DNA of 64,000 nt from a virus. A program made the position numbers and the translations under genes. The stretch lies in IMG/VR virus record IMGVR_UViG_3300016466_000841, positions 13,976 through 77,975 of that record. One strand, given 5' to 3'. This document shows, in pieces, positions 1,247 to 24,001 of the stretch. Position 1 is the first letter of the stretch; each line of letters begins with the position of its first letter. Under the pieces are notes generated by a model. The model saw nothing but the letters and a program-made list of their open reading frames with translations, had not been told where the DNA came from and ran no database searches.

Positions 1247-1648
1247 TTAGATTGATCCATGGATTTTCAGTCCTCTAAAAATCTTGTTCCAGGCTTCGTC
1301 CATGCACATCTTGGCTCGCACCAAGTCATCCTGGGCCAGCATCTCCTGTGCATCACTGAGATAGGAGTAGGCTTCGCCTTCGGGGTCACCAAAGAAGCCA
1401 CGCTCTTCGCCGGTGTAGAATCGCTGGATGGTGACTTTCACGCGATTCAGGGTCTGGCGGGCATCTTCTAGCTCGCCACGATTGGCTTCGCCCCAGGCCG
1501 ACATGATCATGTCTGTCACGATCCGCTTGGGGCTCTTGAATCGGAGATAACTGTCTACCGCCGCATCTACATCTTCGCGTAGAGCGCCAAACATGCGGAC
1601 CTGGGCTCGCTGGCGCGAATCCATCTCGTCATATGTCATTGTGGTCAT
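1247..1648 (-). CDS. Hypothetical early protein
   Basis: ORF track; start moved to MTTMTYD after SD AGGAG, downstream of promoter 1679-1708. Confidence 0.7.
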   Translation of the reverse strand: MTTMTYDEMDSRQRAQVRMFGALREDVDAAVDSYLRFKSPKRIVTDMIMSAWGEANRGELEDARQTLNRVKVTIQRFYTGEERGFFGDPEGEAYSYLSDAQEMLAQDDLVRAKMCMDEAWNKIFRGLKIHGSI

Positions 1649-2721: not shown

Positions 2722-2972
2722 CCACGCATCAAGGTCTGCACGATGCGCTGGGCCTCCATCTTTTTGATCTGATCTTCCAGATATCGTATCTCACGCTCGC
2801 GATGAGCACGCGGCACTTCCATGAGCAGGCGTTTGACCATGCTGGACCACCAGCCCGCTTCGTAGGCATAGTTGGTGTTGCCGTTGATCTGGCAGGCTCG
2901 GCTGAAGGCGTCCACGGTGTCTGATACGGTGTCTTTTTCCCGGTGCCAGCGATCCCAGTCGTGTACTTTCAT
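2718..2972 (-). CDS. Hypothetical protein
   Basis: ORF track; ATGA coupling. Confidence 0.65.
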   Translation of the reverse strand: MKVHDWDRWHREKDTVSDTVDAFSRACQINGNTNYAYEAGWWSSMVKRLLMEVPRAHREREIRYLEDQIKKMEAQRIVQTLMRG

Positions 2973-3166
2973 TCTGTGATCCTTACAGGTTTGCAGTCCA
3001 GTTTCACCAAGGATTGATTGGCTGTTTTAAGCAGGCGCAAGAGGTCAGTCTGGCACTCACCGGCGGTGGCATAATAGCCCACGGTTTGGGAACCAGCGGG
3101 TCCACCCACTTCTGGGGTGCTCACAGCAGTGGCCACCAGCGCAAATATCACAACAGGTCCTGTCAT
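2969..3166 (-). CDS. Hypothetical protein with N-terminal signal/TM segment
   Basis: Hydrophobic N-terminus, two Cys; ATGA coupling. Confidence 0.6.
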   Translation of the reverse strand: MTGPVVIFALVATAVSTPEVGGPAGSQTVGYYATAGECQTDLLRLLKTANQSLVKLDCKPVRITE

Positions 3167-3396
3167 TCTAGCAAGGTCCTTTCTTGTATGGCCCAGTAAT
3201 TCTCGACGGCCCGGCGTGCATGGTCGTGCCCGATGAACTGGCCCAGATAGTGCTCATCTGAATGACCTCGTATGATCTTAGCCAACCAGATCTTGGTGTG
3301 TGCCATCTTGTGTATCTGGGCCACGATGAGGCCATCTTCTTGATTGTAGAAATAATAGGTATCATGATCCGCATCCATCCACAGTCGTGGCGTCAT
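3163..3396 (-). CDS. Hypothetical protein
   Basis: ORF track; ATGA coupling. Confidence 0.65.
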   Translation of the reverse strand: MTPRLWMDADHDTYYFYNQEDGLIVAQIHKMAHTKIWLAKIIRGHSDEHYLGQFIGHDHARRAVENYWAIQERTLLE

Positions 3397-5568: not shown

Positions 5569-5793
5569 TTATCTTTGGAACATCCATATAGATTTTTGTA
5601 TCTGTGCTTCTTTGTCTCGTCGCCGCTGTTCGACTTGTTGGCGATAGCGGAATTCCCTGCGCAGCCACCACCGGAATTTCCGAAAATATTCTCGTTCATT
5701 GAGACGCGGCTCGCCAGACCAATCCCGTTCGTCACAGTTGTCTAACCAAAGCTGATGCACCCAAGCACGGAATGGTAACCAGGGCTTGGGCAT
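5569..5793 (-). CDS. Hypothetical Trp/Arg-rich protein
   Basis: ORF track. Confidence 0.65.
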   Translation of the reverse strand: MPKPWLPFRAWVHQLWLDNCDERDWSGEPRLNEREYFRKFRWWLRREFRYRQQVEQRRRDKEAQIQKSIWMFQR

Positions 5794-11807: not shown

Positions 11808-12422
11808 TTAATCCACTATGGGACCGTTTCCGTTACGGAACCCAACGACACCACCCTCCTCTTGGATCCTCTTTATGACATCTTCAAATAGGATGGGAGC
11901 GAAGTCGGGTGTTTGCTCCACGCACACACAGTGATATCTCGGGTCAATCTCTGTGCTAGAATACAACACTTCGCCGGTTCTAGCGTCAACACCTCTCGCC
12001 TTCATAACTCTGTTGGCATGTAAGTGCCCATGGATGTTCACACCAAAACGACCAAGGCTGGCTTCATGTACAGGGATGTGACTTAAGATCATTCCGTTCA
12101 TGACATGGTAAGCACGTAACTCTCTGAAGTACTGCCGGTACTCATCGTCACGGAAGATGTCATGATTACCGCGGATGAGAACTTTGTCACCGTTGAGGCG
12201 GCTGAGCGTTTGCAATGCTCGTCTATTGATAACAACATCGCCTAGGTGATAGACTTTGTCGTTGGGCTTCACACGGGCGTTCCATGCGGCAATCATGGCT
12301 TCGTCCATCTCTGCAGGATCATCCCAGGGACGCAGTTTGGTCACACCATCATTGCGGGTAAAGCGACACACGCCTGCGTGACCAAAGTGCGTGTCACTGA
12401 CTAAAAATACCGCCGGCATCAT
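11808..12422 (-). CDS. Calcineurin-like metallophosphoesterase
   Basis: SDTHFGH, LGD, GNHD and HGHLH motifs. Confidence 0.9.
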   Translation of the reverse strand: MMPAVFLVSDTHFGHAGVCRFTRNDGVTKLRPWDDPAEMDEAMIAAWNARVKPNDKVYHLGDVVINRRALQTLSRLNGDKVLIRGNHDIFRDDEYRQYFRELRAYHVMNGMILSHIPVHEASLGRFGVNIHGHLHANRVMKARGVDARTGEVLYSSTEIDPRYHCVCVEQTPDFAPILFEDVIKRIQEEGGVVGFRNGNGPIVD

Positions 12423-12433
12423 CGCCTCCTTTC

Positions 12434-12961
12434 TTAAACGTCTTGGTTGTTATTAAAACGATATTTGCGTCTTGCATCAGCAAGTGTAAACACCTTTTCG
12501 TTGTCGTTGGTCCAGTCTTCGTCGACAGGAGACCCGTTGATCGTGTGAGGCTCCTGTTCGTCATAGGTCCAACCTAAGGCCTTCATCATACGATGTTTGA
12601 CTACTAGATTAGGGCTACGAAAAACTTCAGTATCATTGAACCCCATCATGACACCTACTTCGCAGACTGCCCCAGATCGGCAGATACCAGCATGACAATG
12701 TACCACAACGTGCATACGCTTTTCCAGTGCATGTTGTAATAGTTGCACCAGTTGATCAGCTTGTGCCTGAGTACAGGCAAACTCATGATCGTGTTCTTCA
12801 ATATCAAGAAACTCAAATTGATGAACTTCCTTAAATTGTTTCAAGGGAGCAGGGAACTCGTATGCTGGATCTACAATTTGGATCAGCATACTGTTTTCTC
12901 CTGCATCGAAGTGACGAGCACTTTTGATATCGATGATCGATACATTTTGTATCCAAGGCAT
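12434..12961 (-). CDS. Cys-based (PTP/dual-specificity-like) phosphatase
   Basis: VHCHAGICRS CX5R motif. Confidence 0.85.
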   Translation of the reverse strand: MPWIQNVSIIDIKSARHFDAGENSMLIQIVDPAYEFPAPLKQFKEVHQFEFLDIEEHDHEFACTQAQADQLVQLLQHALEKRMHVVVHCHAGICRSGAVCEVGVMMGFNDTEVFRSPNLVVKHRMMKALGWTYDEQEPHTINGSPVDEDWTNDNEKVFTLADARRKYRFNNNQDV

Positions 12962-12979
12962 AGGTTACTCCTAAAAATT

Positions 12980-13055
12980 TGGTAGCGGGGGCAGGATTCG
13001 AACCTGCGATTCTCGGCTTATGAGACCAAGCGGATAACCACTTCCATACCCCGCG
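12980..13055 (-). tRNA. tRNA-Met(CAU), initiator-like
   Basis: Loop CT-CAT-AA; C1:U72 mismatch; CGCGGGG acceptor; own promoter TTGACT-N18-TATAAT at 13084-13113. Confidence 0.9.
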
Positions 13056-13126
13056 TCTCGGGTTCGTCGCTAAATAATTTTATATTATATTTCCTAAGTT
13101 GTAATCCAGTCAACCATACAAATTCA

Positions 13127-14293
13127 ATGAATAAAATATTAAACCCAAAAAAAGATCGTTTTGGTTTTTATCTTGTCAACGGCTTTAAAACCTACAGCAA
13201 GGTCGAGGCTCTCGAAATAGCGACAGCGACCAATCATCCAGTAAAATGGATTTTCAATGACCTAGAATTTTCATCTCACGATTGGACCAAAGAACCAACC
13301 GAATCTCTGCCGGAATTGTATGCCGCGAGAGCTCGGCAGATTAGAGAATCCTATGACCACGTCGTGATATTCTATAGTGGCGGAGCCGATTCAGGCAATG
13401 TAGTCAACAGTTTTGTAGACAACGGAGTTCCATTTGAAGAAATAGCCACTTACAACTATTGGAAGGCCGATCCAAGAAAAGATACATACTTCCACGGCGA
13501 ACAAACAAAAGTCAGCTATCCCCGTATCAAAGAACTGCAGGACCGTGGTATTAAATTTTTACATAGACCCATCGATCTTTCTGACATAGCCTATGACATC
13601 TTCACGGATGATTACTGGTCGACCAATCGGGCTTATTATGCCAATGGCCATTGGGGAATGACTCATCTAGCAAAAAGTTATATCAGAGAACGAGTCGACG
13701 ATTATAAAAAAATAATTGAAAGCGGAAAAAAATTGGTATTTGTTTGGGGCAGCGAGAAACCCAGGATAACCTATAAACAATCCACAGACCAGTATTTTTT
13801 TAGATTTGTCGACAACATCGACAACGGAATAAGCACTCGACAATTGCTACTATCTCGGGAAGAGGAACATGACGAATTGTTTTACTATAATCCCAATTGC
13901 GCCAAGCTACTTTGCAAACAAGGACACACGATCATGAATTTTTTTCGACAACACAAACAAATGGAAGTAGAGCAATTATACACAGAAACAAAATTACCCG
14001 ACATAAACTTCATGTTCGACAATTCTGTCACCGACGATGGTCTCTTCTATAGAAATTTATTGAATTGGTTAATATATCCTAAATTTGATTTCCAGATGTT
14101 TACCTTGGGAAAACCATGGAGTGCAGTCTACAGCCCCAGAGATGAAGTTTGGAGCAAAGACATAGTTTTTTCTTCCCAGATCAACAACCTAGCAGGACAT
14201 CTTTCAAGTCTTGATAAAAAATGGTGGAGAGATCCCAACGATATCAACAAAGGGTTAACACACATCATGTCGCGACCATATGCTTTGTGCTGA
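13127..14293 (+). CDS. PP-loop protein, paralogue 3
   Basis: YSGGADS motif; aligns by eye with the 6016-8366 pair. Confidence 0.7.
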   Translation: MNKILNPKKDRFGFYLVNGFKTYSKVEALEIATATNHPVKWIFNDLEFSSHDWTKEPTESLPELYAARARQIRESYDHVVIFYSGGADSGNVVNSFVDNGVPFEEIATYNYWKADPRKDTYFHGEQTKVSYPRIKELQDRGIKFLHRPIDLSDIAYDIFTDDYWSTNRAYYANGHWGMTHLAKSYIRERVDDYKKIIESGKKLVFVWGSEKPRITYKQSTDQYFFRFVDNIDNGISTRQLLLSREEEHDELFYYNPNCAKLLCKQGHTIMNFFRQHKQMEVEQLYTETKLPDINFMFDNSVTDDGLFYRNLLNWLIYPKFDFQMFTLGKPWSAVYSPRDEVWSKDIVFSSQINNLAGHLSSLDKKWWRDPNDINKGLTHIMSRPYALC

Positions 14294-14296
14294 TAT

Positions 14297-14491
14297 GAGT
14301 TAGAGTCAAAGGCACCGTCCTGTGTTTAAAAGGGTTCACTCATCGTCGTCCCTTCCCCACGAACATACTCATCCTGTAGCCAGCAGGCACGCCCGGATAA
14401 TGGGTGTAGCGGCCCGGGGTGGATCTCTCCCCTAACGGTTGGGGTATGGCTGGCTAAGCCGTTCTTTCGCTCACGCCTTTGACTCTAACCC
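14297..14491 (-). ncRNA. Candidate ~195-nt structured RNA
   Basis: Closing inverted repeat GTTAGAGTCAAAGGC/GCCTTTGACTCTAAC; inner stems TAGCCAGC/GCTGGCTA and CCCGG/CCGGG; directly 3' of tRNA-Leu(UAA). Confidence 0.65.
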
Positions 14492-14496
14492 ACGAT

Positions 14497-14581
14497 TGGT
14501 GCGACTGGCCAGAATCGAACTGGCACGCCCGAAAGCGAGAGATTTTAAGTCTCTTGTGTCTACCGATTTCACCACAGTCGC
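14497..14581 (-). tRNA. tRNA-Leu(UAA)
   Basis: Loop CT-TAA-AA; variable arm; CCA. Confidence 0.95.
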
Positions 14582-14582
14582 T

Positions 14583-14665
14583 TGGTGCCCCAGGAGAGAC
14601 TCGAACTCTCACGCACTAGGCACCGGTTCCTAAGACCGGCGTGTCTACCATTCCACCACCAGGGC
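14583..14665 (-). tRNA. tRNA-Leu(UAG)
   Basis: Loop CT-TAG-GA; CCA. Confidence 0.95.
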
Positions 14666-14729
14666 ACGGTGTATTCTCTGATTATACAGCAAAGAAAAAA
14701 AGAAAACAATCAAATTGGATGGGAAAATA

Positions 14730-14852
14730 CTAAAATAACCAATCACAGGATTTGCTGAAAGTGATCATGTAATAGCATCCAAGAAATTCTCCGGTATAAT
14801 AAAGCACGACCATCAGCAACGCCATCGCTGCTATTATGAATTTTTCTTGCAT
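14730..14852 (-). CDS. Small hydrophobic protein (40 aa)
   Basis: MQEKFIIAAMALLMVVLYY...; SD AAGGA. Confidence 0.5.
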   Translation of the reverse strand: MQEKFIIAAMALLMVVLYYTGEFLGCYYMITFSKSCDWLF

Positions 14853-14867
14853 GACATTTTCCTTGAT

Positions 14868-14946
14868 TGGTGCCGACTCCTGGAATCGAACCAGGTTCCC
14901 GGGCTCTTCAGACCCGTGCTGAAATGACCACACTAGCTCAGTCGGC
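14868..14946 (-). tRNA. tRNA-Phe(GAA)
   Basis: Loop CT-GAA-GA; CCA. Confidence 0.9.
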
Positions 14947-14957
14947 AAATTATTTTT

Positions 14958-15034
14958 TGGGGTGAAGGACGAGAGTTGAACTCGCTCTACCTGTTTCACA
15001 GACAAGTGTGCTGAACCGTTACACTACCAACACC
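14958..15034 (-). tRNA. tRNA-His(GUG)
   Basis: Loop CT-GTG-AA; G-1:C73; CCA. Confidence 0.9.
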
Positions 15035-15049
15035 ATGGGAATCTTCTGT

Positions 15050-15124
15050 TGGCCTCGCTGCCCAGAATCGAACTGAGATCTTGACCTTAGGAGTGTCGTG
15101 TTCTATCCGTTGAACTACAGCGAG
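15050..15124 (-). tRNA. tRNA-Arg(CCU)
   Basis: Loop CT-CCT-AA; weak anticodon stem; CCA. Confidence 0.85.
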
Positions 15125-15125
15125 A

Positions 15126-15365
15126 TCAAGCCCAAGTCATCACAAACAATAATCTATCTTGATCCCATCTAAATCCCACGCCGATTCGGTGGGTGTAACC
15201 AGAGTCTGCCCATGCCCAATGGCTGAAGTGTGGCCCGACATTGAGCAACAGCCAATGCTCTATCGTCTCCACTCCTTGTACCCAATCGAGCTGATCTCGA
15301 TCAGTCATGGGCCAAGGTACCGAAGCCAAATGATCAAACCCAGAATGTTCGACCAACATGCGCAT
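15126..15365 (-). CDS. Small phage protein related to the FxLRWS family
   Basis: Ends ...RLLFVMTWA; TAAATA 5 nt before the ATG. Confidence 0.65.
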   Translation of the reverse strand: MRMLVEHSGFDHLASVPWPMTDRDQLDWVQGVETIEHWLLLNVGPHFSHWAWADSGYTHRIGVGFRWDQDRLLFVMTWA

Positions 15366-15377
15366 GCAAATATTTAT

Positions 15378-15454
15378 TGGTCCGAGTGGAGAGATTCGAA
15401 CTCCCGACCCTCTGCTCCCAAAGCAGATGCGCTACCAGACTGCGCTACACTCGG
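15378..15454 (-). tRNA. tRNA-Pro(UGG)
   Basis: Loop TT-TGG-GA; CCA. Confidence 0.95.
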
Positions 15455-15460
15455 ATGGGT

Positions 15461-15534
15461 TGGTGCCCCGGCGGTGAATCGAACACCGGACTCATGCTTA
15501 CAAGGCAAGTGTTATACCACTTAACTAACAGGGC
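15461..15534 (-). tRNA. tRNA-Thr(UGU), second divergent copy
   Basis: Loop CT-TGT-AA; CCA. Confidence 0.9.
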
Positions 15535-15538
15535 CGGA

Positions 15539-15589
15539 CCATATAGAAACACACTCATTGACGTTGATCTCAAATGTGTTTTTATATGG
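15539..15589. repeat. Spacer hairpin, copy 1 of 3
   Basis: ccatatagaaacaca...tgtgtttttatatgg; related to 20696-20779 and 20781-20818. Confidence 0.75.
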
Positions 15590-15661
15590 TAGGGGCGGGG
15601 AATTTCGAAATCCCGACTCTCTGGTTAAAAGCCAGATACTCTGCCTCTGAGTTACGCCCCC
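15587..15661 (-). tRNA. tRNA-Lys(UUU)
   Basis: Loop CT-TTT-AA; CCA. Confidence 0.95.
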
Positions 15662-15716
15662 AGAAATTTACCACTCTTGTCACTGGACATGACAGTCTCT
15701 CCTTTGAAAAAATGTA

Positions 15717-15792
15717 TGGCTGGGGATGATGGACTCGAACCACCGAATGCCGGAATCAAAATCCGGTGCCTTACCAACTTGGCGAATCCCCA
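15717..15792 (-). tRNA. tRNA-Gln(UUG)
   Basis: Loop TT-TTG-AT; CCA. Confidence 0.95.
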
Positions 15793-15797
15793 ATGTA

Positions 15798-15873
15798 TGG
15801 TGGAGCCGACAGGGATCGAACCTGCGACATTCTGCTTGCAAAGCAGACGCTCTCCCAACTGAGCTACGGCCCC
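15798..15873 (-). tRNA. tRNA-Ala(UGC)
   Basis: Loop TT-TGC-AA; G3:U70; CCA. Confidence 0.95.
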
Positions 15874-15886
15874 ATATTTTAGAACA

Positions 15887-15961
15887 TGGCCCGACCGGAG
15901 GGAATCGAACCCCCATTATGGGCTTAGAAGACCCTTGTATTATCCATTATACGACGGTCAG
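15887..15961 (-). tRNA. tRNA-Arg(UCU)
   Basis: Loop CT-TCT-AA; CCA. Confidence 0.9.
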
Positions 15962-15967
15962 ATTGTT

Positions 15968-16042
15968 TGGTGCGGGATCACGGTTTCGAACCGCGGACCC
16001 TCTGAATGTAAATCAGATGCTCTACCCCTGAGCTAATCCCGC
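15968..16042 (-). tRNA. tRNA-Val(UAC)
   Basis: Loop TT-TAC-AT; CCA. Confidence 0.95.
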
Positions 16043-16057
16043 TTTATATTTTTATTC

Positions 16058-16132
16058 TGGAGCGGGTAGTCGGATTCGAACCGACGGCATTTTCCTTGGC
16101 AAGGAAACATTCTACCCCTGAATTATACCCGC
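16058..16132 (-). tRNA. tRNA-Gly(GCC)
   Basis: Loop TT-GCC-AA; U73; CCA. Confidence 0.95.
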
Positions 16133-16138
16133 ATCGTA

Positions 16139-16369
16139 CTATTTGACTTTATTGAGATACTCTCGACCATAACGGCCTTCCTGCAATTCCAACAATGCTG
16201 TTACCACAGGCAATGCATGACTGGTCAGCTGGCTTTCTTTGTGATGACGAGAGATTTCTCTGGCTCTCGCTGATGCCATAAGGATCATGTCATATTTGTT
16301 GCCGGCATTTTCTGAGCAACGTTGTATGTCAAGCAATGGTGTGCGACTGGGTATGAGTTTGTTAGACAT
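16139..16369 (-). CDS. rpoZ: RNA polymerase omega subunit-like protein
   Basis: GNKYDMILMASARAREI...PVVTALLELQEG matches the omega pattern NrYdLvliAarRARql...kPvviALrEiaeG. Confidence 0.75.
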   Translation of the reverse strand: MSNKLIPSRTPLLDIQRCSENAGNKYDMILMASARAREISRHHKESQLTSHALPVVTALLELQEGRYGREYLNKVK

Positions 16370-16386
16370 GTTGTTTCCTTTGTGTG

Positions 16387-16950
16387 TTATTTTAAAATGA
16401 ATCCGATTCTGTCACCGCATCTGCTTTCGTAAAAATTTTCTTTCCAGACTGGCACAATCTCTTCACTGTCATGGTTGCTAAAATCATCATTGTAACGCAG
16501 GTGTGCTTCGATTACTTTGTCGCCGATCACTTCTACATTAAACCACTCATATCTGTCGGCCACTTGTTGCAGGCTGGGTGGAAGATCAAATGTGTCTGAG
16601 ATTTTTTTCCATCTAGAAAATCGATCTAATCTTTCGGGATCGTCCCGGAACCCTTCTGCTGCCAAGGTCTGTTTGCCATAATTATAATCAAAGGTCATGT
16701 GCCTACCAAAAAACAGTTCGCACCAAAAAAATCCATCTGGCACTTGGCTTTCATGATCTATGTAGACTACACCAGCACCGCGGCTCATCATCCTGAAGTT
16801 CACACAAGGTCTCACGATGTATCGTCCAGGTCGGGGCGGTACAGTTCCTGCGGGGCCGCAATCGTAACCCAGGCTCTTGGACAGTATGAATTTGTCATAG
16901 ATCCAAAGATCTCTTGGCTGGATAAAGTCTAAAACATCAATGTCGTCCAT
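16387..16950 (-). CDS. Conserved phage protein, possibly ATP-grasp-like
   Basis: YIVRPCVN...G, FWCE, NVEVIGDKVIEAHLR pattern. Confidence 0.6.
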   Translation of the reverse strand: MDDIDVLDFIQPRDLWIYDKFILSKSLGYDCGPAGTVPPRPGRYIVRPCVNFRMMSRGAGVVYIDHESQVPDGFFWCELFFGRHMTFDYNYGKQTLAAEGFRDDPERLDRFSRWKKISDTFDLPPSLQQVADRYEWFNVEVIGDKVIEAHLRYNDDFSNHDSEEIVPVWKENFYESRCGDRIGFILK

Positions 16951-16963
16951 GCATGCCTCAATT

Positions 16964-17037
16964 TGGAGCGGCGAGCGGGAATCGAACCCGCGCGATCAGC
17001 TTGGAAGGCTGAAGTTCTACCATTAAACTACCGCCGC
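16964..17037 (-). tRNA. tRNA-Gly(UCC)
   Basis: Loop CT-TCC-AA; CCA. Confidence 0.95.
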
Positions 17038-17039
17038 AT

Positions 17040-17618
17040 TTATTTGAATCTTGGTCCTGCTACCCACCCCACCAAACTCATTCGCTGACCCGACGTCACT
17101 GGTGTGACTTCGTGCAACACCCAGCTGGGAAAAAATATCAATTTTCCTCTTTCTTTTGGCGCTACGGTTGGCTGTTCTCCAAAATAAAGTTTCAAGTCAC
17201 CGCCCTCATAGTCGTTGGGATTTGATAATTGTAAAACAAAACTCAATTTTCTGCAACCACCTATTCGCTCACCTATGTCGAGATGTGGACCATACTTTCC
17301 ATTCGCTTGCCCAAAATACTGAGTAAATTGTAAATCTTCGATGTGAGTGAGGTCATAATGGAAATATTTGTCATTTACTGTTTTGATGTTCCAGGTCAAG
17401 GTGTTGTAGATCCAAGAACAGTCTGGGTCAGTGGACTTTAACCACGCGATATTACTGAGCCTATGACCTGGCGAGGCTGCGATCGCCTCGCCAGGTATGC
17501 CTGGCATTGACCGCCCTAGGTCAATGATTTTATCAAGTTCGTCGTTGGAAAACATGTCGGCTCTCCAAGTCCAGAACTTGTTGTCGGGTGGCGGATCTAA
17601 CAGCCAGGTCATTGTCAA
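17040..17618 (-). CDS. 2OG-Fe(II) oxygenase (PKHD/prolyl-hydroxylase type)
   Basis: HLD, RKLS, YEGGDL, FPSWVLHEVTPVTSGQRMSLVGW. Confidence 0.9.
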   Translation of the reverse strand: MTMTWLLDPPPDNKFWTWRADMFSNDELDKIIDLGRSMPGIPGEAIAASPGHRLSNIAWLKSTDPDCSWIYNTLTWNIKTVNDKYFHYDLTHIEDLQFTQYFGQANGKYGPHLDIGERIGGCRKLSFVLQLSNPNDYEGGDLKLYFGEQPTVAPKERGKLIFFPSWVLHEVTPVTSGQRMSLVGWVAGPRFK

Positions 17619-18085
17619 GCCACTCGTGTGATACTCTTTAGACGATCGGCAGCATAACTGGCCGCGAAGGCTCTAGGCTTGACCATGGGTATCACATTGC
17701 ATGTTCCACGTATGTAACCAATAGCTTGACCAATCACACAACTCGATCCGTGCATTTCGTCGGGGTTGATGTCAAGATGCACTTCCACTTCACGATCTTC
17801 CAATGCCGGGGCAAGCCGTTGGAACATTTCTGATACACGGTACACTTCGTTCATGAGCCGCATGCTGGGACGATCGGCTTTTTGATCGTAGTCTCTTTCT
17901 CTGGAAACTTCTCCAAAAATCTTGCAACCGTGGCGCCCGCCGATGTGCACCACTATGGCCACTGTGTATTCGGCCCACCATACTTTGTCAGACTTGTAGC
18001 GTTCTGAGTCAGCGCCGAGATAGACACGAGTACCTGGAGGTTGAGCTTGTATGAATCCTACCACTTGATCGATGTCAATTTTCAT
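17615..18085 (-). CDS. RNase H-like YkuK family protein (DUF458)
   Basis: YLGADS, RLMNE, EVHLDIN, KPRAFAASYAAD. Confidence 0.85.
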   Translation of the reverse strand: MKIDIDQVVGFIQAQPPGTRVYLGADSERYKSDKVWWAEYTVAIVVHIGGRHGCKIFGEVSRERDYDQKADRPSMRLMNEVYRVSEMFQRLAPALEDREVEVHLDINPDEMHGSSCVIGQAIGYIRGTCNVIPMVKPRAFAASYAADRLKSITRVA

Positions 18086-18116
18086 GATATCCCTTTGCTG
18101 TATTTACATTGACTCT

Positions 18117-18193
18117 TGGCCGGTCCGGCAGGATTCGAACCCACGACCTCCTGTTTCGAAGACAGGCACTCTGTCCAACTGAGTTACGGACCG
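18117..18193 (-). tRNA. tRNA-Arg(UCG)
   Basis: Loop CT-TCG-AA; CCA. Confidence 0.9.
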
Positions 18194-18197
18194 CCGA

Positions 18198-18289
18198 TGG
18201 TGGAGAATGTGGGATTCGAACCCACGGTACTGGTTACCCAATACGACGGGTTAGCAACCCGCTGCCTTCAGCCTCTCAGCCAACTCTCC
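18198..18289 (-). tRNA. tRNA-Ser(GCU)
   Basis: Loop TT-GCT-AA; long variable arm; CCA. Confidence 0.95.
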
Positions 18290-18305
18290 AATTTGAAAAA
18301 TATGA

Positions 18306-18380
18306 TGGTACACCGTAGGGGAATCGAACCCCTCTTACCTGCGTGAAAGGCGGGTGTCCTAACCGATAGACGAACGGTGC
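18306..18380 (-). tRNA. tRNA-Glu(UUC)
   Basis: Loop CT-TTC-AC; CCA. Confidence 0.95.
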
Positions 18381-18421
18381 CTAGTACTTTAGTACAACTA
18401 GATTCGGTAAATAGCTAAACA

Positions 18422-19024
18422 ATGCAGTTACAATTTAATAAAATACGCGATTTTGTTTATTCTGTCAACCTCGATGTGCAGGTCGACCATGCCACTGTTT
18501 CAACAGCCCTAGAAAAAGAAACTTGGATTCCAGATCGGGCGGCCTACGGACAGGCCGATTTCGCGAGCCGATACTATCTTGAATGGAATAAAATTTCTGG
18601 TCCTGTGCTACGAGATCTGCAAGGTTGGGCCTGCTCGGACTCGTTCCGTAGGAGCGTGATCGATCAGCTCTACAGCGAACCTACTTTTGCCGAGTACTGG
18701 AGCATTGATCCCGAAACCATGTTTGGCATCACGTCAAGCTCGGGTCAATTCCTCAAAGATTTACCGGGATTCGGAGCCGGAATACACCTTGATAATCGAT
18801 TACAAGTCGCCTCGGGCATGATCTATTTCATCAATGGCGACGACGAAAATCAAAGCACGGTTTTTTATCGCGACCAAAACAAACGCTCACCGGCAAGGAT
18901 ACCCACCGGTCATGGTCGAGGTTGGATCGCTGCCAACATGCACGACAGCTGGCACGATGGATGGAATCACAGTGATCAACCGCGCTACAGCATGATCTTA
19001 AGCATTGGTCTCAGGATCAATTAA
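18422..19024 (+). CDS. 2OG-Fe(II) oxygenase-like protein, antisense within the tRNA array
   Basis: IHLD...WHDG...RYS; TAAATA at 18408-18413. Confidence 0.6.
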   Translation: MQLQFNKIRDFVYSVNLDVQVDHATVSTALEKETWIPDRAAYGQADFASRYYLEWNKISGPVLRDLQGWACSDSFRRSVIDQLYSEPTFAEYWSIDPETMFGITSSSGQFLKDLPGFGAGIHLDNRLQVASGMIYFINGDDENQSTVFYRDQNKRSPARIPTGHGRGWIAANMHDSWHDGWNHSDQPRYSMILSIGLRIN

Positions 19025-19027
19025 ATC

Positions 19028-19104
19028 TGGCTACGGCGGAGGGATTCGAACCCCCAACATACAGTTTTGGAGACTGTCGTTCTGCCAGTTGGAACTACGC
19101 CGTA
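19028..19104 (-). tRNA. tRNA-Trp(CCA)
   Basis: Loop CT-CCA-AA; CCA end. Confidence 0.95.
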
Positions 19105-19111
19105 ATGTCAT

Positions 19112-19199
19112 TGGAGGAAGAGGTGGGATTCGAACCCACGGACCCTTGCGAGCCGCTGGTTTTCAAGACCAGAGCCATAGACCACTCGACCACTCTTCC
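19112..19199 (-). tRNA. tRNA-Ser(UGA)
   Basis: Loop CT-TGA-AA; variable arm; CCA. Confidence 0.95.
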
Positions 19200-19204
19200 A
19201 TTAT

Positions 19205-19290
19205 TGGTGCCATGCTCTGCTTCGAAACAGAGCTCTCGTTGCAGTTTGAGAGGCTTCGTGGCTAGCATCGAGAGGCCGTCCTGCCACAGC
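19205..19290 (-). ncRNA. tRNA-like RNA without a canonical D arm or anticodon loop
   Basis: GCTGTG/CATGGC acceptor-like stem + ACCA; T arm CTCTG-TTTCGAAG-CAGAG; stem CTCTCG/CGAGAG enclosing ~30 nt. Confidence 0.6.
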
Positions 19291-19311
19291 GTAAGGCGAC
19301 GCTGTGCATCT

Positions 19312-19392
19312 TGGTGCCCCTAATCGGATTCGAACCGATAGTTATGACACTCCTTTTGAGAGAGCCGCCTTTACCAATTTGGCCATAGGGGC
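19312..19392 (-). tRNA. tRNA-Leu(CAA)
   Basis: Loop CT-CAA-AA; short variable arm; CCA. Confidence 0.9.
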
Positions 19393-19394
19393 AT

Positions 19395-19471
19395 TGGTGG
19401 TGATGGAGGGATTCGAGCCCCCGATCTTCCGCGTATGAAGCGGCTGCATTCACCAGCTATGCTACATCACC
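19395..19471 (-). tRNA. tRNA(CAU), elongator Met or Ile2
   Basis: Loop TT-CAT-AC; paired G1:C72; CCA. Confidence 0.85.
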
Positions 19472-19519
19472 TTATTGTGCATTGTCTTTGATCCATTGCC
19501 AACGTTCTTGTTGAGTCAT
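19472..19519 (-). CDS. Candidate 15-aa mini-ORF between tRNAs
   Basis: AAGGAG-N7-ATG; MTQQERWQWIKDNAQ; the stop abuts tRNA nucleotide 1. Confidence 0.45.
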   Translation of the reverse strand: MTQQERWQWIKDNAQ

Positions 19520-19537
19520 GGTCGTTCTCCTTGTTTA

Positions 19538-19614
19538 TGGTGCCTGTTCGTGGGTTCGAACCACGGACCCCCGCGTTATCAACACGGTGCTCTGACCTGC
19601 TGAGCTAAACAGGC
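19538..19614 (-). tRNA. tRNA-Ile(GAU)
   Basis: Loop TT-GAT-AA; CCA. Confidence 0.95.
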
Positions 19615-19616
19615 AT

Positions 19617-19711
19617 TGGTACTCCCACTCAGATTCGAACTGAGATCATCCCCTCATCTAGAGGCATCGCCGGAGTATAAGGCCGGAGCTTTACCATTAA
19701 GCTATGGGAGC
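19617..19711 (-). tRNA. Atypical tRNA-Ile(UAU) with ~25-nt variable arm
   Basis: Good acceptor, D and T arms; loop CT-TAT-AC; extra arm with CCTC-TAGAT-GAGG hairpin. Confidence 0.75.
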
Positions 19712-19715
19712 AAAT

Positions 19716-19793
19716 TGGAAGTGAGAGTGGGATTCGAACCCACGGTTGTGCTGCTTTGCAGGCAGTTGCCTTGGACCGCTCGGCCATCTCACT
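19716..19793 (-). tRNA. tRNA-Cys(GCA)
   Basis: Loop CT-GCA-AA; U73; CCA. Confidence 0.95.
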
Positions 19794-19798
19794 GTGTT

Positions 19799-19874
19799 TG
19801 GCTGTCCAGGCTGGGCTCGAACCAGCGACAGGGTGATTAACAGTCACCTACTCTACCTACTGAGCTACTGGACA
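19799..19874 (-). tRNA. tRNA-Asn(GUU)
   Basis: Loop CT-GTT-AA; CCA. Confidence 0.95.
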
Positions 19875-19882
19875 ATGAAACT

Positions 19883-19957
19883 TGGCGGTCCCAAGGGGAA
19901 TCGAACCCCTCCATCCGCCGTGACAGGGCGGTGTACTAACCGATATACTATGGGACC
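19883..19957 (-). tRNA. tRNA-Asp(GUC)
   Basis: Loop CT-GTC-AC; CCA. Confidence 0.95.
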
Positions 19958-19965
19958 AAAACTGG

Positions 19966-20355
19966 CTAATTCAAAAGATATTCGTTATATTTCTCCCCAC
20001 CAATATTGATTTGTCCTTTTGTGGTCAATACATTATGGGGTATCAGTGCTTGTTTTCCTGTGACAAGATGATGTAAAAAAATCAAATCCCAATTTTGTTG
20101 TTGGATAGTCTTGGATGGTTTATTGAAAGACATGTTTCCGCCCTTGACGTCGGCATTGAACATCATTATTCCACTTTCTTTGAGTTGGTGCGATGTCTTG
20201 ACTTGGACTTTTTTGAGAATTCCGTCCATTTCCACAATCAAATCCCAATCAGCACTATCTGTCAAAGGAAGTGCTACATCATAACCTTTTGAAGTGAAAT
20301 AGGCAATCGCTTGTCCTAATCCAGCATCACCTTGCTTTTTACTATTTTTGAACAT
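19966..20355 (-). CDS. PD-(D/E)XK endonuclease, probable free-standing homing endonuclease
   Basis: KQGDAG, PLTDSADWDLIV, KVQVKT; AT-rich relative to its neighbours. Confidence 0.75.
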   Translation of the reverse strand: MFKNSKKQGDAGLGQAIAYFTSKGYDVALPLTDSADWDLIVEMDGILKKVQVKTSHQLKESGIMMFNADVKGGNMSFNKPSKTIQQQNWDLIFLHHLVTGKQALIPHNVLTTKGQINIGGEKYNEYLLN

Positions 20356-20400
20356 ATCAGTCTCCTTTGTTTTATTTAGCGGACTGATAGTCTGTTATAT

Positions 20401-20487
20401 TGGTGGGTGCCCACGGATTCGAACCGCGAAGGCCAAAGACAAGAGATTTACAGTCTCCCCCCGATACCGTTACGGGACTAGACACCC
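20401..20487 (-). tRNA. tRNA-Tyr(GUA)
   Basis: Loop CT-GTA-AA; variable arm; CCA. Confidence 0.95.
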
Positions 20488-20492
20488 AAAAA

Positions 20493-20697
20493 TGGCGGTT
20501 CTTGTGGACTTTCACCACACTCTTGCAGTCTGAGAGCTTTACCAGTGTCCCGTATCGTCACCGGTCAGGGCTATTGTCGGGGGTTGCATGACGACCTAGT
20601 CTAGACATTGCGTGTGACTAGCACGCCTGTTTCCATCCTGTCCATCACTACCTGGCAGGGAACTGAGAGCTCAGAAGGAGTACCTTACCGGAGAACC
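20493..20697 (-). ncRNA. 205-nt tRNA-like RNA with tmRNA-like architecture
   Basis: GGTTCT/AGAACC-G-CCA acceptor; GTGG-TGAAAGT-CCAC T-like arm; nested stems ACTC/GAGT, TCTGAG/CTCAGA, CAGT/ACTG, TCCC/GGGA, GTCGTCA/TGACGAT. Confidence 0.65.
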
Positions 20698-20818
20698 ATA
20701 TTGAAACACACTGATTGAACCATTACCTCTTTCGAGTCCGTCCTTACCGTCGGGCGTTAAACAATGTGCTTCAATATGGCACCACAGAACACAGTCTATA
20801 CGAAATGTGTTTTGTGGT
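20696..20818. repeat. Spacer hairpins, copies 2 and 3
   Basis: ccatattgaaacaca...tgtgcttcaatatgg and accacagaacaca...tgtgttttgtggt. Confidence 0.75.
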
Positions 20819-20822
20819 CAAC

Positions 20823-20947
20823 CATAGACAGGATCGTGTCCTGCCCCGGAGTCTTACTGGTGCCGTTTCCGCCAGCACTGTCATGTATCCGGTCCGCCCG
20901 TTCGTCTTTTTATTCTACGCTGACTTGGCCCTCGTTGCCTGGCGTAT
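20823..20947 (-). ncRNA. Structured RNA element directly after the attenuator
   Basis: Stems TACGC/GCGTA, CCGGA/TCCGG, GTGCTG/CGGCAC, GGGCAGGA/TCCTGTCT; no credible ORF. Confidence 0.5.
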
Positions 20948-20982
20948 AAAACAAAAAACCCTGGTATCTTTCGATCCAGGGT
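20948..20982 (-). terminator. Intrinsic terminator of the putative attenuator
   Basis: ACCCTGG-ATC-GAAA-GAT-A-CCAGGGT followed by TTTTTGTTTT. Confidence 0.9.
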
Positions 20983-21025
20983 CCCGGTAGTTTGAACTGA
21001 TTACAACTCGATCTACTCGGACCCT
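20978..21025 (-). promoter_or_regulatory. Antiterminator hairpin overlapping the leader stop codon and the terminator 5' arm
   Basis: AGGGTCC-GA-GTAG ... CTAC-CG-GGACCCT; shares ACCCT with the terminator. Confidence 0.7.
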
Positions 21026-21141
21026 CCATGATCACTATTCTCAATGGCACGGGTATATCCAAAAGAGGGCCATAGTGTTAGGCCGCCCTGTGCTGGACAT
21101 GCATGCATCTTCGATATGAGTGATAAGTGTTGAGTCATCAT
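21013..21141 (-). CDS. Putative leaderless leader peptide (42 aa) of the tRNA array
   Basis: MMTQHLSLISKMHACPAQGGLTLWPSFGYTRAIENSDHGGSE*; ATG 7 nt after the -10 box; stop lies inside the antiterminator. Confidence 0.65.
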   Translation of the reverse strand: MMTQHLSLISKMHACPAQGGLTLWPSFGYTRAIENSDHGGSE

Positions 21142-21148
21142 AGTATCT

Positions 21149-21177
21149 ATTGTATGAGTTTATTTATACCTTGTCAA
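21149..21177 (-). promoter_or_regulatory. tRNA-array promoter: sigma70 with nested T4-type late box
   Basis: TTGACA-N17-TACAAT; TATAAATA in the spacer. Confidence 0.85.
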
Positions 21178-21187
21178 CGGCTTTTGG

Positions 21188-21215
21188 AAAAAACCCTACC
21201 AAAAGTAGGGTTTTT
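21188..21215. terminator. Bidirectional intrinsic terminator after ahpF
   Basis: aaaaaa-ccctac-caaaa-gtaggg-ttttt. Confidence 0.85.
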
Positions 21216-21218
21216 GGT

Positions 21219-22730
21219 TTAATTGCGTATGATGTAGTCAAATGCTCCTAGTGCGGCAGTGGCACCCGATCCCATGGAGATGATGATCTGCTTGTAAGGC
21301 ACATTGGTGCAGTCGCCGGCAGCGAACACACCCGGCATGGTGGTGGCACCATGACCATCCACGATGATCTCGCCGTAGCGTGTGCGGTCCACTGCACCCT
21401 CCAGCCAGTCAGTGTTGGGCACCAGGCCGATCTGGATGAAAACACCTTCCAAGGCCAGATGCTGGTTGATGCCAGTATCTCGCTCAGTATAAGTGATGCC
21501 CGTGACCTTTTCTACTCCGGTTATCTCTGTGACCTGCACATTGGTATAGACGGTGACATTGGACAGACTTTTAAGACGATTCTGCAACACTTGGTCGGCT
21601 TTGAGTTTGGGCATGAACTCAAACACAGTGACATGCCCAACGATACCAGCGAGATCGATGGCTGCTTCCACGCCCGAGTTACCACCACCGATCACTGCCA
21701 CATGTTTTCCTTTAAACAAAGGACCGTCACAGTGTGGGCAGTAAGCGACACCGCGGTTCTTGAACTCTTCTTCGCCAGGCACGCCGAGATTGCGCCATCT
21801 AGCACCTGTGGCAATGATCACTGTCTTAGACTTGAGGGTGGCACCTGACTCCAGTTCTACTTTGATCTGACCGTTTTTCTCGATGCGAGCAGCTCGTTGC
21901 AGGTTGAAGATGTCTACAGGGTACTCCTTGACATGTTCTTCGAGACTGGCAACGAGTTTTGGCCCTTCGGTGTATTTCGTGCCGATTAGATTCTCAATGC
22001 CCATGGTGTCCATGACCTGTCCGCCAAAGCGTTCAGCAACGATGGCAGTGCGGATGCCTTTGCGAGCAGCATACACAGCGGCCGCGGCACCAGCGGGTCC
22101 GCCACCCACCACCAAGACATCATACTCGCGGCCATCGATGTCTGAGACATCTGCGGCACTGCCCAACCGGGCCAAGATCTCTTCTACGGTCATGCGGCCT
22201 GACCCAAAGGCGTCACCGTTGAGCCATACACTGGGAACTGCCATGATGTTGCGATTGGTGGCTTCTTCTTGGAAAGCCGCACCGTCGATCATCACATGGG
22301 TGATGTTGGGATTCAACACTGCCATGGTGTTGAGTGCTTGTACCACATCAGGGCAGTTATGACAAGTGAGACTGATGTAAGTTTCAAAACGATATTCGCC
22401 GCGCAGAGCCTTGATCTGCTCAATGATCCGGTCGTCGATCTTGGGTTTCCTGCCACTGACCTGTAGCAAAGCCAATACAAGACTAGTGAACTCGTGTCCA
22501 GTGGGCACACCTGCGAAAGTGATCCTGTCTCCTACACGGAAACTGGGAGTGCGTGGCAGTTGCCCGGGCTCGATGGTGATGAGGTCTGTCATGCCAGCAA
22601 TCTCATGCAAGAGATCCAACATGGCTTGGCTGGTCTCGTCTACACCTGCTCGCACGGTGATGGCAACAGGTCCTTCCAGTAGTCGTAGATACTGCTCAAG
22701 TTGTTGTTTTATTGATTGTTCTAACGGCAT
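21219..22730 (-). CDS. ahpF: Alkyl hydroperoxide reductase subunit F
   Basis: [42 protein letters not shown]. Confidence 0.95.
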
Positions 22731-22733
22731 TGA

Positions 22734-23354
22734 TTACGCTCTTCCTGATGCTAACACAATGTGACAGATATGCTCTAGTCTTTCTATATGTTCAAACGCA
22801 CGCCAAGGTGTAGTGTCCACGGCTACTACACCGTGTCCTTTGATACCCACAATATCGTAGTCAATATTACCTTCTCTGTCTAATTTTAAAGCACGATGAC
22901 ATTCATCAGCCAATTCCTGACTTATAGGAGGTACATCTCCTACATTGGGCGCCACTCGAGTGTATCTACTGAGTTCAGGAAAGTCTTGAACCAAATCCTG
23001 TAGCACTATTCCTCGATGCATGGCAGCCACGGTATAGGTAGGATGGAAATGCATGACTACTCGAATATCGTTTCGATGCTGCCCCATTTCTCGTTGTAGA
23101 CCAAAATGCAGTGGCAACTCACCACTGGGACGAAGATTGCCACTGAGATCATCCTGTTCTATCGCTTCGGCATGATCCCCCACGATACGCATTTTTTTAA
23201 ACATATCGTACTGCATTTTCTGTTTGCGGACACCGCTAGGCGTGATGTAAAAATGATCACGATCGTGATAGCGTATGCTGACATTGCCGTCACGACTGGT
23301 AATCCAGTTACGCCGATAGGCCTCTACCATGGTATCGCATATGGTTTCTAGCAT
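22734..23354 (-). CDS. Class II aldolase/adducin family protein
   Basis: DGNVSIR, ITPSG, PSGELPLH, HFHP, GHG. Confidence 0.85.
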   Translation of the reverse strand: MLETICDTMVEAYRRNWITSRDGNVSIRYHDRDHFYITPSGVRKQKMQYDMFKKMRIVGDHAEAIEQDDLSGNLRPSGELPLHFGLQREMGQHRNDIRVVMHFHPTYTVAAMHRGIVLQDLVQDFPELSRYTRVAPNVGDVPPISQELADECHRALKLDREGNIDYDIVGIKGHGVVAVDTTPWRAFEHIERLEHICHIVLASGRA

Positions 23355-23357
23355 GGC

Positions 23358-23921
23358 TTAGATTTTGCCTACGAGGTCCAAGCTGGGGGTCAGAGTGGCA
23401 GCGCCTTCTTTCCACTTGGCCGGGCACACTTGACCAGGATTGGCGGCTGTGTACTGTGCGGCCTTGAGCTTGCGCAGGGTTTCGCTGACGTCACGGGCGA
23501 TCTCGTTGCTGTGTACTTCAGCAGTTTTCACGATGCCTTCGGGATTGATCACGAATGTACCACGCAGGGCCAGGCCTTCTTCTTCAATGTGTACACCAAA
23601 GCCACGGCTCAAGGTGTGTGTGGGATCGCCCACCAGGGGAAAGCGAGCCTTGCCCACAGCAGGGCTTGTTTCATGCCAAACCTTGTGGCTGAAGTGTGTG
23701 TCTGTTGTGACGATGTAAACTTCGGCGCCCATCTTTTCGAACTGGGCATAGTTGTCAGCGGCATCTTCGATCTCTGTGGGGCAGTTGAAGGTAAAGGCCG
23801 CGGGCATGAAAATGAACACATTCCACTTACCTTTGATGCTTTCATTGCTGACTTCTACGAACTTTCCGTTGTGGTAGGCTTGTGTTTTGAACTCGGGTAC
23901 TGCTTGATTAATGATACTCAT
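23358..23921 (-). CDS. ahpC: Alkyl hydroperoxide reductase subunit C (2-Cys peroxiredoxin)
   Basis: FTFNCPTE, TDTHFSHKVWH, VCPAKW, PSLDLVGKI. Confidence 0.95.
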   Translation of the reverse strand: MSIINQAVPEFKTQAYHNGKFVEVSNESIKGKWNVFIFMPAAFTFNCPTEIEDAADNYAQFEKMGAEVYIVTTDTHFSHKVWHETSPAVGKARFPLVGDPTHTLSRGFGVHIEEEGLALRGTFVINPEGIVKTAEVHSNEIARDVSETLRKLKAAQYTAANPGQVCPAKWKEGAATLTPSLDLVGKI

Positions 23922-24001
23922 TGTTAAGTTTTCCTTTTTGTTGAGATAATGAAATCATCATCGATTCAAGATCGATGGACGATTTTTATTGCACTGCATG
24001 A

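Follow-up and report, generated by a model that had tools for sequence, protein, structure and literature searches.

In the attenuators that head amino acid operons such as trp, his, leu, thr, pheA and ilv, the position of the ribosome on the leader selects either a terminator or an antiterminator, while T-box leaders bind one uncharged transfer RNA (tRNA) directly, without the ribosome, and are characterized by a conserved specifier loop and T-box sequence. Phage-encoded tRNA arrays have been proposed to serve codon compensation, the replacement of a degraded host tRNA pool or escape from tRNA-cutting defences; to our knowledge, the regulation of such arrays has hardly been addressed so far. 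The present analysis concerns a 64,000-nucleotide stretch of viral DNA (positions 13,976 to 77,975 of IMG/VR record IMGVR_UViG_3300016466_000841, referred to below as the window) and an element on its minus strand, at positions 20948 to 21177, which precedes a tRNA array. Based on the sequence of the element and of 41 distinct relatives, it is probably a ribosome-dependent attenuator at the head of a tRNA operon, the leader of which would sample nearly every aminoacyl-tRNA. Comparison of the relatives establishes, at the level of sequence, a translated leader frame, two conserved and mutually exclusive RNA structures, a fixed place for the stop codon, tRNA arrays that follow and an unusual amino acid composition; from these features we infer that it is the ribosome which operates the switch, in which direction the response goes and what its natural trigger is.

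Judged by its architecture, the element is one that would work like the trp/his attenuator class, from which it departs on the matter of single-amino-acid codon runs. As in that class, a short translated leader frame is combined with an intrinsic terminator, present in all members, and with an antiterminator that shares a strand with the terminator and excludes it (33 of 33 folded relatives, with 4 to 7 nucleotides in common), and completed translation would lead to termination. Leaders of the trp/his type are defined by runs of codons for one or a few amino acids and precede biosynthetic genes, whereas the leaders described here contain no codon run for one amino acid, typically hold 19 to 20 amino acid types and precede tRNA genes. 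The element further differs in being phage encoded and mostly leaderless, and in that no conserved anti-antiterminator of the 1:2 type was found among its members. In pyrBI-type coupling attenuators the open reading frame (ORF) passes through the terminator, so that termination is prevented by a ribosome close behind the polymerase, whereas here it ends 26 to 34 nucleotides before X', the 3' strand of the antiterminator, so that a ribosome at the stop codon would favour termination. Like a T-box, the element would report tRNA charging through a terminator/antiterminator switch that controls genes of translation supply, but it has no Rfam match and conserves a reading frame instead.

Two further systems sense through ribosome pausing or stalling. 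The leaderless polycysteine short ORFs of mycobacteria are reported to be cysteine-responsive attenuators which unmask a ribosome-binding site (bioRxiv 10.1101/834739); a leaderless 5' short ORF that senses through ribosome pausing on behalf of downstream genes is common to both systems, whereas the mycobacterial one reportedly responds to a single amino acid and at the level of translation, in place of the intrinsic terminator and all-amino-acid leader found here. Drug-sensing leader peptides, exemplified by tylosin-dependent ribosome stalling before yxjB (PMC6851288), are alike in that a stalled ribosome refolds the RNA in favour of downstream expression and that a general disturbance of translation is sensed. 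Their arrest is drug and peptide specific and their cargo consists of resistance genes, whereas the present leaders have no known arrest motif, an unusual composition and a tRNA cargo. In literature listings and abstracts, which were searched without subscription journals or supplements, neither an attenuator that precedes tRNA genes in phages nor a leader holding all amino acids was described.

Transcription of the element is predicted to be driven by a sigma-70-type promoter (21149-21177, minus strand) composed of TTGACA (21177-21172), a 17-nucleotide spacer and TACAAT (21154-21149), which, with a consensus score of 11/12, is the top promoter match within 12000-24000. Seven nucleotides past the -10 box, with AGATACT between, lies an ATG at 21141 (in the sequence ATGATG) that has no Shine-Dalgarno sequence before it and opens a leaderless ORF of 42 codons plus TAG (21013-21141; coding part 21141-21016, TAG 21015-21013). 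Codons 39 to 41 contain the 5' strand of the antiterminator, designated X (AGGGTCC, 21019-21025), which was defined by folding and covariation and lies 4 to 10 nucleotides before the stop. The stop codon itself falls within the 5' arm of an inner hairpin (20987-21016), likewise defined by folding and covariation, in which GTAG (21016-21013) and CTAC (20990-20987) are the paired strands. The 3' strand of the antiterminator, X' (GGACCCT, 20978-20984; folding and three-way covariation), overlaps the 5' arm of the intrinsic terminator (20947-20982), which consists of the stem-loop ACCCTGGATC-GAAA-GATACCAGGGT at 20982-20958, with a hairpin energy of -12.9 kcal/mol, followed by a T run; ACCCT is common to both structures. 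Much of this arrangement had been put forward in a first-pass annotation made from the letters of the window alone, and its promoter, its leaderless ATG without a Shine-Dalgarno sequence, its 42-codon frame with the quoted peptide, 34 distinct codons and 19 amino acids, and its pairing at the stop region with ACCCT shared by both hairpins were all reproduced. The same is true of the ahpF terminator upstream of the promoter, a hairpin and T run right after the ahpF stop (21183-21215, minus strand, by sequence reading; 21189-21215 in a palindrome scan of the plus strand), which is predicted to insulate the element from upstream transcription.

The 41 distinct relatives were obtained from phage and metagenome contigs by pattern scans and a structure model. 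The first two came from loci around AhpF homologues, and a 21-nucleotide stretch over the -10 box and start, identical in all three sequences, was used along with looser versions to scan viral contigs, metagenome contigs and cellular genomes. Searches independent of the ATG employed the terminator pattern alone and a covariance model of the 3' half (R1), the latter run on 65 sources with 592,720 bases in total, and contributed six further members, which differ from the others in promoter or 5' end. Since the geometry recurs with covariation in all these relatives, it goes beyond what chance would give.

Both alternative structures are conserved by compensatory change. In an ordinary MAFFT alignment of 33 relatives, the cells of the terminator stem are paired without exception (231 of 231), and 25 of them have changed on both sides. 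In a model-based alignment (A4, 35 distinct rows), 92.3% of the antiterminator cells are paired, with 10 of 13 pairs changed on both sides, and the corresponding values for the inner hairpin (helix 2) are 94.6% and 5 of 6 pairs. Antiterminator cells changed on both sides number 65, against 19.8 +/- 4.9 in shuffles, none of 500 of which reached 65, and the covariation score is 0.401, as opposed to at most 0.105 when the partner is slid, although A4 was fitted to the antiterminator structure and thus flatters the antiterminator counts. At the base common to both helices, a U has A as both of its partners in 18 of 33 relatives (A-U-A) and a C has G in 12 (G-C-G), the remaining 3 having wobble pairs; this three-way covariation may be taken as the clearest sign of a switch. 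The mutual exclusion proposed for the window alone is borne out in that the same bases are contested in all 33 folded relatives: in each, the minimum-energy fold computed without the 3' arm of the terminator pairs 4 to 7 nucleotides of the 5' arm with X. The antiterminator is the preferred state of all 33 relatives when they are folded locally, but in equilibrium folds of the full length the terminator has a slight advantage in 23 of the 33, and when either state is forced on the whole RNA the difference ranges from -2.9 to +7.4 kcal/mol, a modelled gap that would be as expected of a switch.

The placement of these strands relative to the stop codon is equally constrained. X ends 1 to 16 nucleotides upstream of the stop and X' starts 26 to 34 nucleotides downstream of it in 26 of 26 placeable rows, so that the overlap of stop and antiterminator predicted from the window is found in the relatives together with covariation in both alternative stems. 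A ribosome covers about 15 nucleotides either side of its A site. Modelled on this footprint, a ribosome at the stop would cover X and leave X' and the terminator free. A conserved anti-antiterminator was considered, as full-length folds pair X with nucleotides 7-19 in many members, and was rejected because this pairing is no better than in shuffles or other ORF windows: for the 5' end against X, z is about 0 relative to shuffles, and the 5' end is the best of all 24-nucleotide ORF windows in only 1 of 33 relatives. No conserved upstream partner of X was found, though a non-conserved one may exist; in the absence of translation either fold might form, and the read-through proposed for this case from the window alone is one possible outcome.

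A trans-acting factor, be it a phage or host protein that binds RNA, a small ligand or, as with T-boxes, uncharged tRNA, might instead flip the switch via the region of about 115 nucleotides that is also the open frame. The window RNA does fold better than shuffles (z = -3.0), a stretch resembling GAATAGT recurs in the frame and a conserved small protein gene often stands after the terminator, each of which would suit such a factor; it is nonetheless very improbable, given that no conserved pairing between 5' end and X was found and that the region from start to X is poorly conserved in sequence and length, while its reading frame is kept by frame-preserving insertions and deletions that an aptamer would not need. 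Moreover, Rfam 15 families, those of T-boxes and riboswitches included, gave only tRNAs and weak chance-level matches over 19900-21300 up to E = 5, and no match in 12 related loci at the gathering score.

Several lines of evidence indicate that the leader frame is translated. An open frame of 36 to 52 codons, which begins with an ATG close to the promoter and reaches its stop codon within the inner hairpin or at its edge, is kept in 41 of 41 distinct members, and median peptide identity among 15 subfamily representatives is 0.36; conservation of the architecture alongside divergence of the peptide had been named beforehand as a test and was thus observed. The frame is also present in the six of six members found without use of the ATG. 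The other two frames over the same stretch contain 110 and 125 stops in 33 members, with at least one in each, a count that is uninformative for frame 0, as the region was bounded by the frame-0 stop. Differences in leader length amount to whole codons, and changes fall at the three codon positions in the proportion 44/42/79 (chi-square 15.7, p about 0.0004; gap-free subfamily alignments of groups A-G, the misaligned group H having been left out). The ratio of nonsynonymous to synonymous change (pN/pS) is mostly 0.2-0.4. Four members (L032, L034, L036 and L041; loci of relatives are designated by L and a number) replace the leaderless start with a Shine-Dalgarno sequence (AAGGAA or AGAGAA) and a 5' untranslated region of about 50-60 nucleotides, and one of the six members found by structure has a leaderless start after a different initial sequence. 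It would appear from these sequences that the conserved feature is translation to a fixed end point, not the mode of starting.

A purifying pN/pS is equally compatible with a peptide of its own function, and the frame might accordingly encode a protein of about 40 residues whose gene is ended by the terminator, with X:X' pairing serving mRNA stability or a modest leak. The conserved Trp and N-S motif of the leaders, and the possession by the unit of its own strong promoter and terminator, would fit such a gene, which we regard as improbable on the following grounds. Leader peptides gave no Pfam-A or PHROGs family up to E = 1 except one chance-level match (E = 0.09). Where the demands of RNA and peptide conflict, it is the RNA that is kept: in L015 and L088, a 1-nucleotide deletion in X preserves the pairing and changes the peptide end from GGSE to WRSK, the upstream frame remaining open. 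The three-way covariation points to selection for both pairings of X', and in 22 of 23 loci the genes and tRNAs downstream have no consensus promoter of their own. The composition of the leaders is also rare among real protein segments, in that 20 amino acid types are reached in 0.3-1.5% of the 38-47-residue windows of the phage's own proteins.

Among the 41 leaders, 17 contain 20 amino acid types, 16 contain 19, three contain 18 and five contain 15-17, where uniform codon draws would give about 16. At least 19 types are present in 11 of 15 subfamily representatives despite a median identity of 36%; in a simulation in which a 20-type ancestor had 65% of its residues replaced, the probability of retaining at least 19 was 0.06-0.09. 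Positions of rare residues such as Cys differ widely between subfamilies, nearly all leaders have one Trp, and GAATAGT and variants of it recur as a nucleotide stretch within the frame. The window leader uses 34 distinct codons for 19 amino acids (no Val), among them five for Ser and three apiece for Thr, Leu and Gly; ATA, CTA and TTA also occur. The first-pass annotation had cautioned that this codon diversity was modest, which holds against uniform codon draws (z = 1.6 only) and is too modest against the phage's own genes: among 1618 windows of 42 codons drawn from its long ORFs (mean 27.5, standard deviation 2.5), a value of 34 belongs to the top 0.4%. Its description of the leader as pan-codon likewise stands in part: amino acids are broadly sampled, but synonymous-codon diversity beyond the demand of the peptide is weak (mean z 0.68), and pan-amino-acid is the better term.

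The composition of the leader also tracks the tRNA set it precedes. Amino acids which have a downstream tRNA and are absent from the leader number zero in 15 of 19 loci and one in the other four, namely Val in the window and in L059, Leu in L052 and Asp in L008. One superclade has poorer leaders without subsets of Cys, Asp, Glu, His and Tyr, and its downstream arrays are without those tRNAs, which are either upstream of the attenuator or absent; in L015 and L068 it is an additional attenuator further upstream, its leader holding 19 types, that is followed by the missing tRNAs. Where tRNA-His (L052) or tRNA-His and tRNA-Cys (L034 and L036) do lie downstream, the leader has His or Cys. In the contig that carries two attenuators, each heads its own sub-array: the first is followed by tRNAs for Asp, Glu, Asn, Tyr, Cys, His and Val, and the second, whose leader is without Cys, Glu, His and Tyr, precedes the rest. 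Fisher tests of the match between leader and array gave p values of 0.0014 (L053), 0.032 (L052), 0.014 (L068), 0.016 (L034) and 0.15 (L036), which are not independent, because the lineages form one related superclade, and the comparison of tRNA sets is affected by some tRNA-Tyr genes being missed by ARAGORN. The sampling of the tRNA pool proposed from the window is supported by this tracking and by the enrichment in amino acid types.

The same attenuator could, alternatively, sense general translation capacity or the closeness of ribosome and polymerase (through ribosome availability, leaderless-mRNA initiation or host shut-off, for example) and not individual aminoacyl-tRNAs, the rich composition being a by-product; the condition of the translation machinery would in that case time or throttle the tRNA operon. 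The structural evidence applies equally to such a sensor, and a leaderless start would make the switch sensitive to initiation; runs of single codons are lacking, singleton residues are not specially conserved and Val is often absent despite a downstream tRNA-Val. We nevertheless judge this unlikely, since it leaves unexplained both the 19-20 amino acid types of 33 of the 41 leaders and the reduced leaders which are without just those amino acids missing from their arrays, and since the four Shine-Dalgarno-led members indicate that the initiation mode is not a conserved feature.

Aminoacyl-tRNA-sensing attenuation of the tRNA operon would proceed as follows. Host RNA polymerase would start at the strong sigma-70 promoter, and a ribosome would translate the leader of about 40 codons from its 5'-terminal AUG. 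With the ribosome at the last codons or the stop while the polymerase makes the next 60 nucleotides or so, X would be covered together with the inner hairpin's 5' arm, X' would be free for the terminator and transcription would end after about 190 nucleotides. A ribosome that lags, or that stalls earlier at a codon for which charged tRNA is scarce, would allow X to pair with X', blocking the terminator and giving read-through into the tRNAs and the conserved RNA ahead of them, and in some relatives also into a transfer-messenger RNA (tmRNA). Because the leader has codons for almost every amino acid with a downstream tRNA, a shortage of any one sampled aminoacyl-tRNA would raise the supply of phage tRNAs, thus forming a self-limiting loop. 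Host tRNA cleavage, phage-caused turnover or starvation may be the natural trigger, and a counter-defence loop against anticodon nucleases, as suggested in the first-pass annotation, is conceivable. It is further conceivable, and put forward here tentatively, that the leader is a tunable probe with one codon of each kind, which co-evolves with the tRNA genes it controls and by which arrays are split into probe-headed modules, as in the contig with two attenuators; it would then act during infection as a sensor of tRNA loss, whether to anticodon nucleases or to phage turnover, and would induce replacement tRNAs, along with tmRNA where there is one, only upon a stall.

Besides the fitted alignment, the ambiguous pN/pS and the interdependent Fisher tests mentioned above, a number of points weigh against the proposed attenuator. 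Single-copy residues are not better conserved within subfamilies (variable at 12 of 54 positions, against 59 of 231; p = 0.73), and short-term selection for one of each residue is therefore not visible. Val is absent from 11 of 41 leaders, though the arrays of the window and L059 encode tRNA-Val. In two clades, C and F, the end of X is 15-16 nucleotides away from the stop and thus at the edge of the footprint of a terminating ribosome, and the only Asp codon of the window leader lies five codons before the stop, where a stall would mask X and favour termination. Some loci (L021, L024, L041 and others) have rich leaders and few tRNAs in the available DNA, possibly owing to cut contigs. Phage-specific promoters may lie inside the array. 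Finally, in L012, a relative with an AhpF 74% identical to that of the window, a plain promoter drives the array and the element is lacking, which identifies the element as an accessory module.

If the proposed attenuation is true, some giant phages would express their tRNAs not constitutively but upon measuring translation with a built-in probe, and the concept of attenuation would be widened from one amino acid and one pathway to the whole aminoacyl-tRNA pool in a single leader. An element of about 190 nucleotides could, in addition, serve synthetic biology as a general reporter of translation stress.

The cargo of the element was examined across the relatives. A same-strand tRNA lies within 1.4 kilobases (kb) downstream in 23 of the 24 loci with at least 800 nucleotides of downstream DNA, as anticipated from the window, and none lies there on the other strand. 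No consensus promoter stands between element and tRNA in 22 of those 23 loci; in the window, a search of the minus strand downstream of 21149 for TTGAC-N17-19-TAYAAT found the next near-consensus site at 13113, beyond the main array. The statement in the first-pass annotation that the array follows directly has to be corrected, in that about 460 nucleotides of structured RNA (20946-20493) come first, followed by tRNA-Tyr, an endonuclease ORF and a tRNA-Asp at 19957.

The first part of this RNA (20823-20946, minus strand) would be a read-through product and consists of a hairpin with the 7-nucleotide loop AACGAGG, an A-rich linker and a ACGGGCGG module. About 30 loci (for instance L002 7966-8101, L007 12894-13022 and L024 8203-8339) have a conserved RNA of this kind ahead of their first tRNA and behind either the attenuator or a small protein gene, 34 of 38 pattern matches fitting the description. 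Its loop reads AACGAG(G/A), its stem covaries by eye (GGC/GCC, GCGA/UCGC, GAGU/ACUC and others) and is nested in an outer stem, and its 3' part consists of the A-rich linker and then ACGGGCGG...GGAUGAA; it had no match in Rfam. The small protein gene, which is absent from the window, stands directly after the terminator in many relatives (L016 about 1230-1400, minus strand; L087 about 3080-3256; L002 7789-7962; L021 about 2969-3124; and others), has its own Shine-Dalgarno sequence and encodes a helical protein of about 52-66 residues with the motif L-x-x-K-x-[DE]-R-A, for which no PHROG family was matched.

By sequence reading, the first cargo of the window (20405-20697, minus strand) comprises a candidate CCA-ending tRNA-like RNA of about 205 nucleotides (20493-20697), with GGTTCT...AGAACC-G-CCA ends and a T-arm-like GTGTGG-TGAAAGT-CCACA, and then a tRNA-Tyr (20405-20487) with anticodon GTA and a long variable arm. 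The latter was missed by ARAGORN and by the Rfam tRNA model at default thresholds and scores 31 bits on the Rfam tRNA-Sec model. The main array (14497-19957, minus strand) contains 26 tRNAs according to ARAGORN and a few interspersed ORFs; with tRNA-Tyr included, the tRNAs of the window cover all 20 amino acids. Between tRNA-Tyr and tRNA-Asp lies an ORF of 129 residues for a PD-(D/E)XK endonuclease (PF11645; 19966-20355, minus strand), whose absence from the same place in L002 suggests a mobile insertion within the array.

Permuted two-piece tmRNA genes occur in six relatives (L010 8752-9155, L059 7567-7956, L075 12068-12571, L087 9903-10295, L052 12558-12872 and L053 12719-13033). Several are located inside or at the end of an attenuator-headed tRNA array, and permuted tmRNAs of relatives are also found near ahpF. 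Their nearest family in the Rfam clan is beta_tmRNA, at 70-81 bits and thus below the cut-off, a likeness which may hint at a betaproteobacterial host. That the element or the RNA following it could itself be an undetected tmRNA was rejected, as ARAGORN and Rfam find none and the true tmRNA of L010 has a different appearance; features reminiscent of RNase P RNA, a hammerhead core and a C/D box were noted from reading alone, had no tool support and were dropped.

The element carriers are a group of giant freshwater phages. The window derives from a 78-kb viral contig with a CheckV completeness of 22%, which belongs to a jumbo myovirus. The tail sheath of this virus shares about 40% identity with its counterpart in Pseudomonas phage PA5oct and 47% with the one in Sinorhizobium phage Phosso. 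A single copy of the element is present in each of the two contigs of greatest completeness (252 and 300 kb), and one contig carries two. R1 had no match in PA5oct or Phosso, the nearest isolates by tail sheath, and no element was found in cultured phages among the isolates examined; blastn of 19900-21300 against the phage collection matched the tRNA-Asp only, and the scan of cellular genomes gave seven chance matches, none with the structure, and no member. In all, R1 returned 59 matches, of which 46 are full-length (including duplicates of contigs present in two collections), 12 are partial on the reverse strand and one is of another kind. The reverse-strand matches fall on the palindromic hairpin and were discarded, as was L034 7505-7576 (R1, E = 0.61), which has neither frame nor terminator; a further 15 distinct promoter-pattern matches and 14 distinct chance matches proved on reading to be without hairpin and terminator and were not counted as members. 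Among assembled contigs from sequencing runs, which carry no starts, ends or levels, the one library recorded as a metatranscriptome (X19) contained a 151-nucleotide contig of a relative spanning 20916-21052 across the terminator; this could be read-through RNA or contaminating DNA and carries no weight.

Promoters of this type, followed by AGATACT, are common in the phage group: related contigs have 31 distinct copies, of which 16 precede the element and 15 other things. In the form TTGAC-N17-ATACAATAGATACT the promoter also heads other small RNAs (L029 about 2919-3100, L034, L036 and L032), examples of which are a unit whose tRNA-like ends flank a long insert and another with TAGGGCAGTTTATTGTCC.... 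Within the tRNA array of L052, at 5611-5752 on the plus strand, a sub-threshold match to the manganese (yybP-ykoY) riboswitch aptamer was observed (35 bits, against a cut-off of 45).

On the minus strand of the window, the gene order is ahpC, a class II aldolase gene, ahpF (AhpF being assigned by Pfam), the hairpin terminator, the promoter, the leader ORF, the switch and the tRNAs. In three relatives (L004, L005 and L011), about 60-160 nucleotides past the ahpF stop, there is a 23-codon ORF (MWTKPEATEMRYGFEITMY...), not present in the window, which we take to resemble PqqA, the precursor peptide of pyrroloquinoline quinone.

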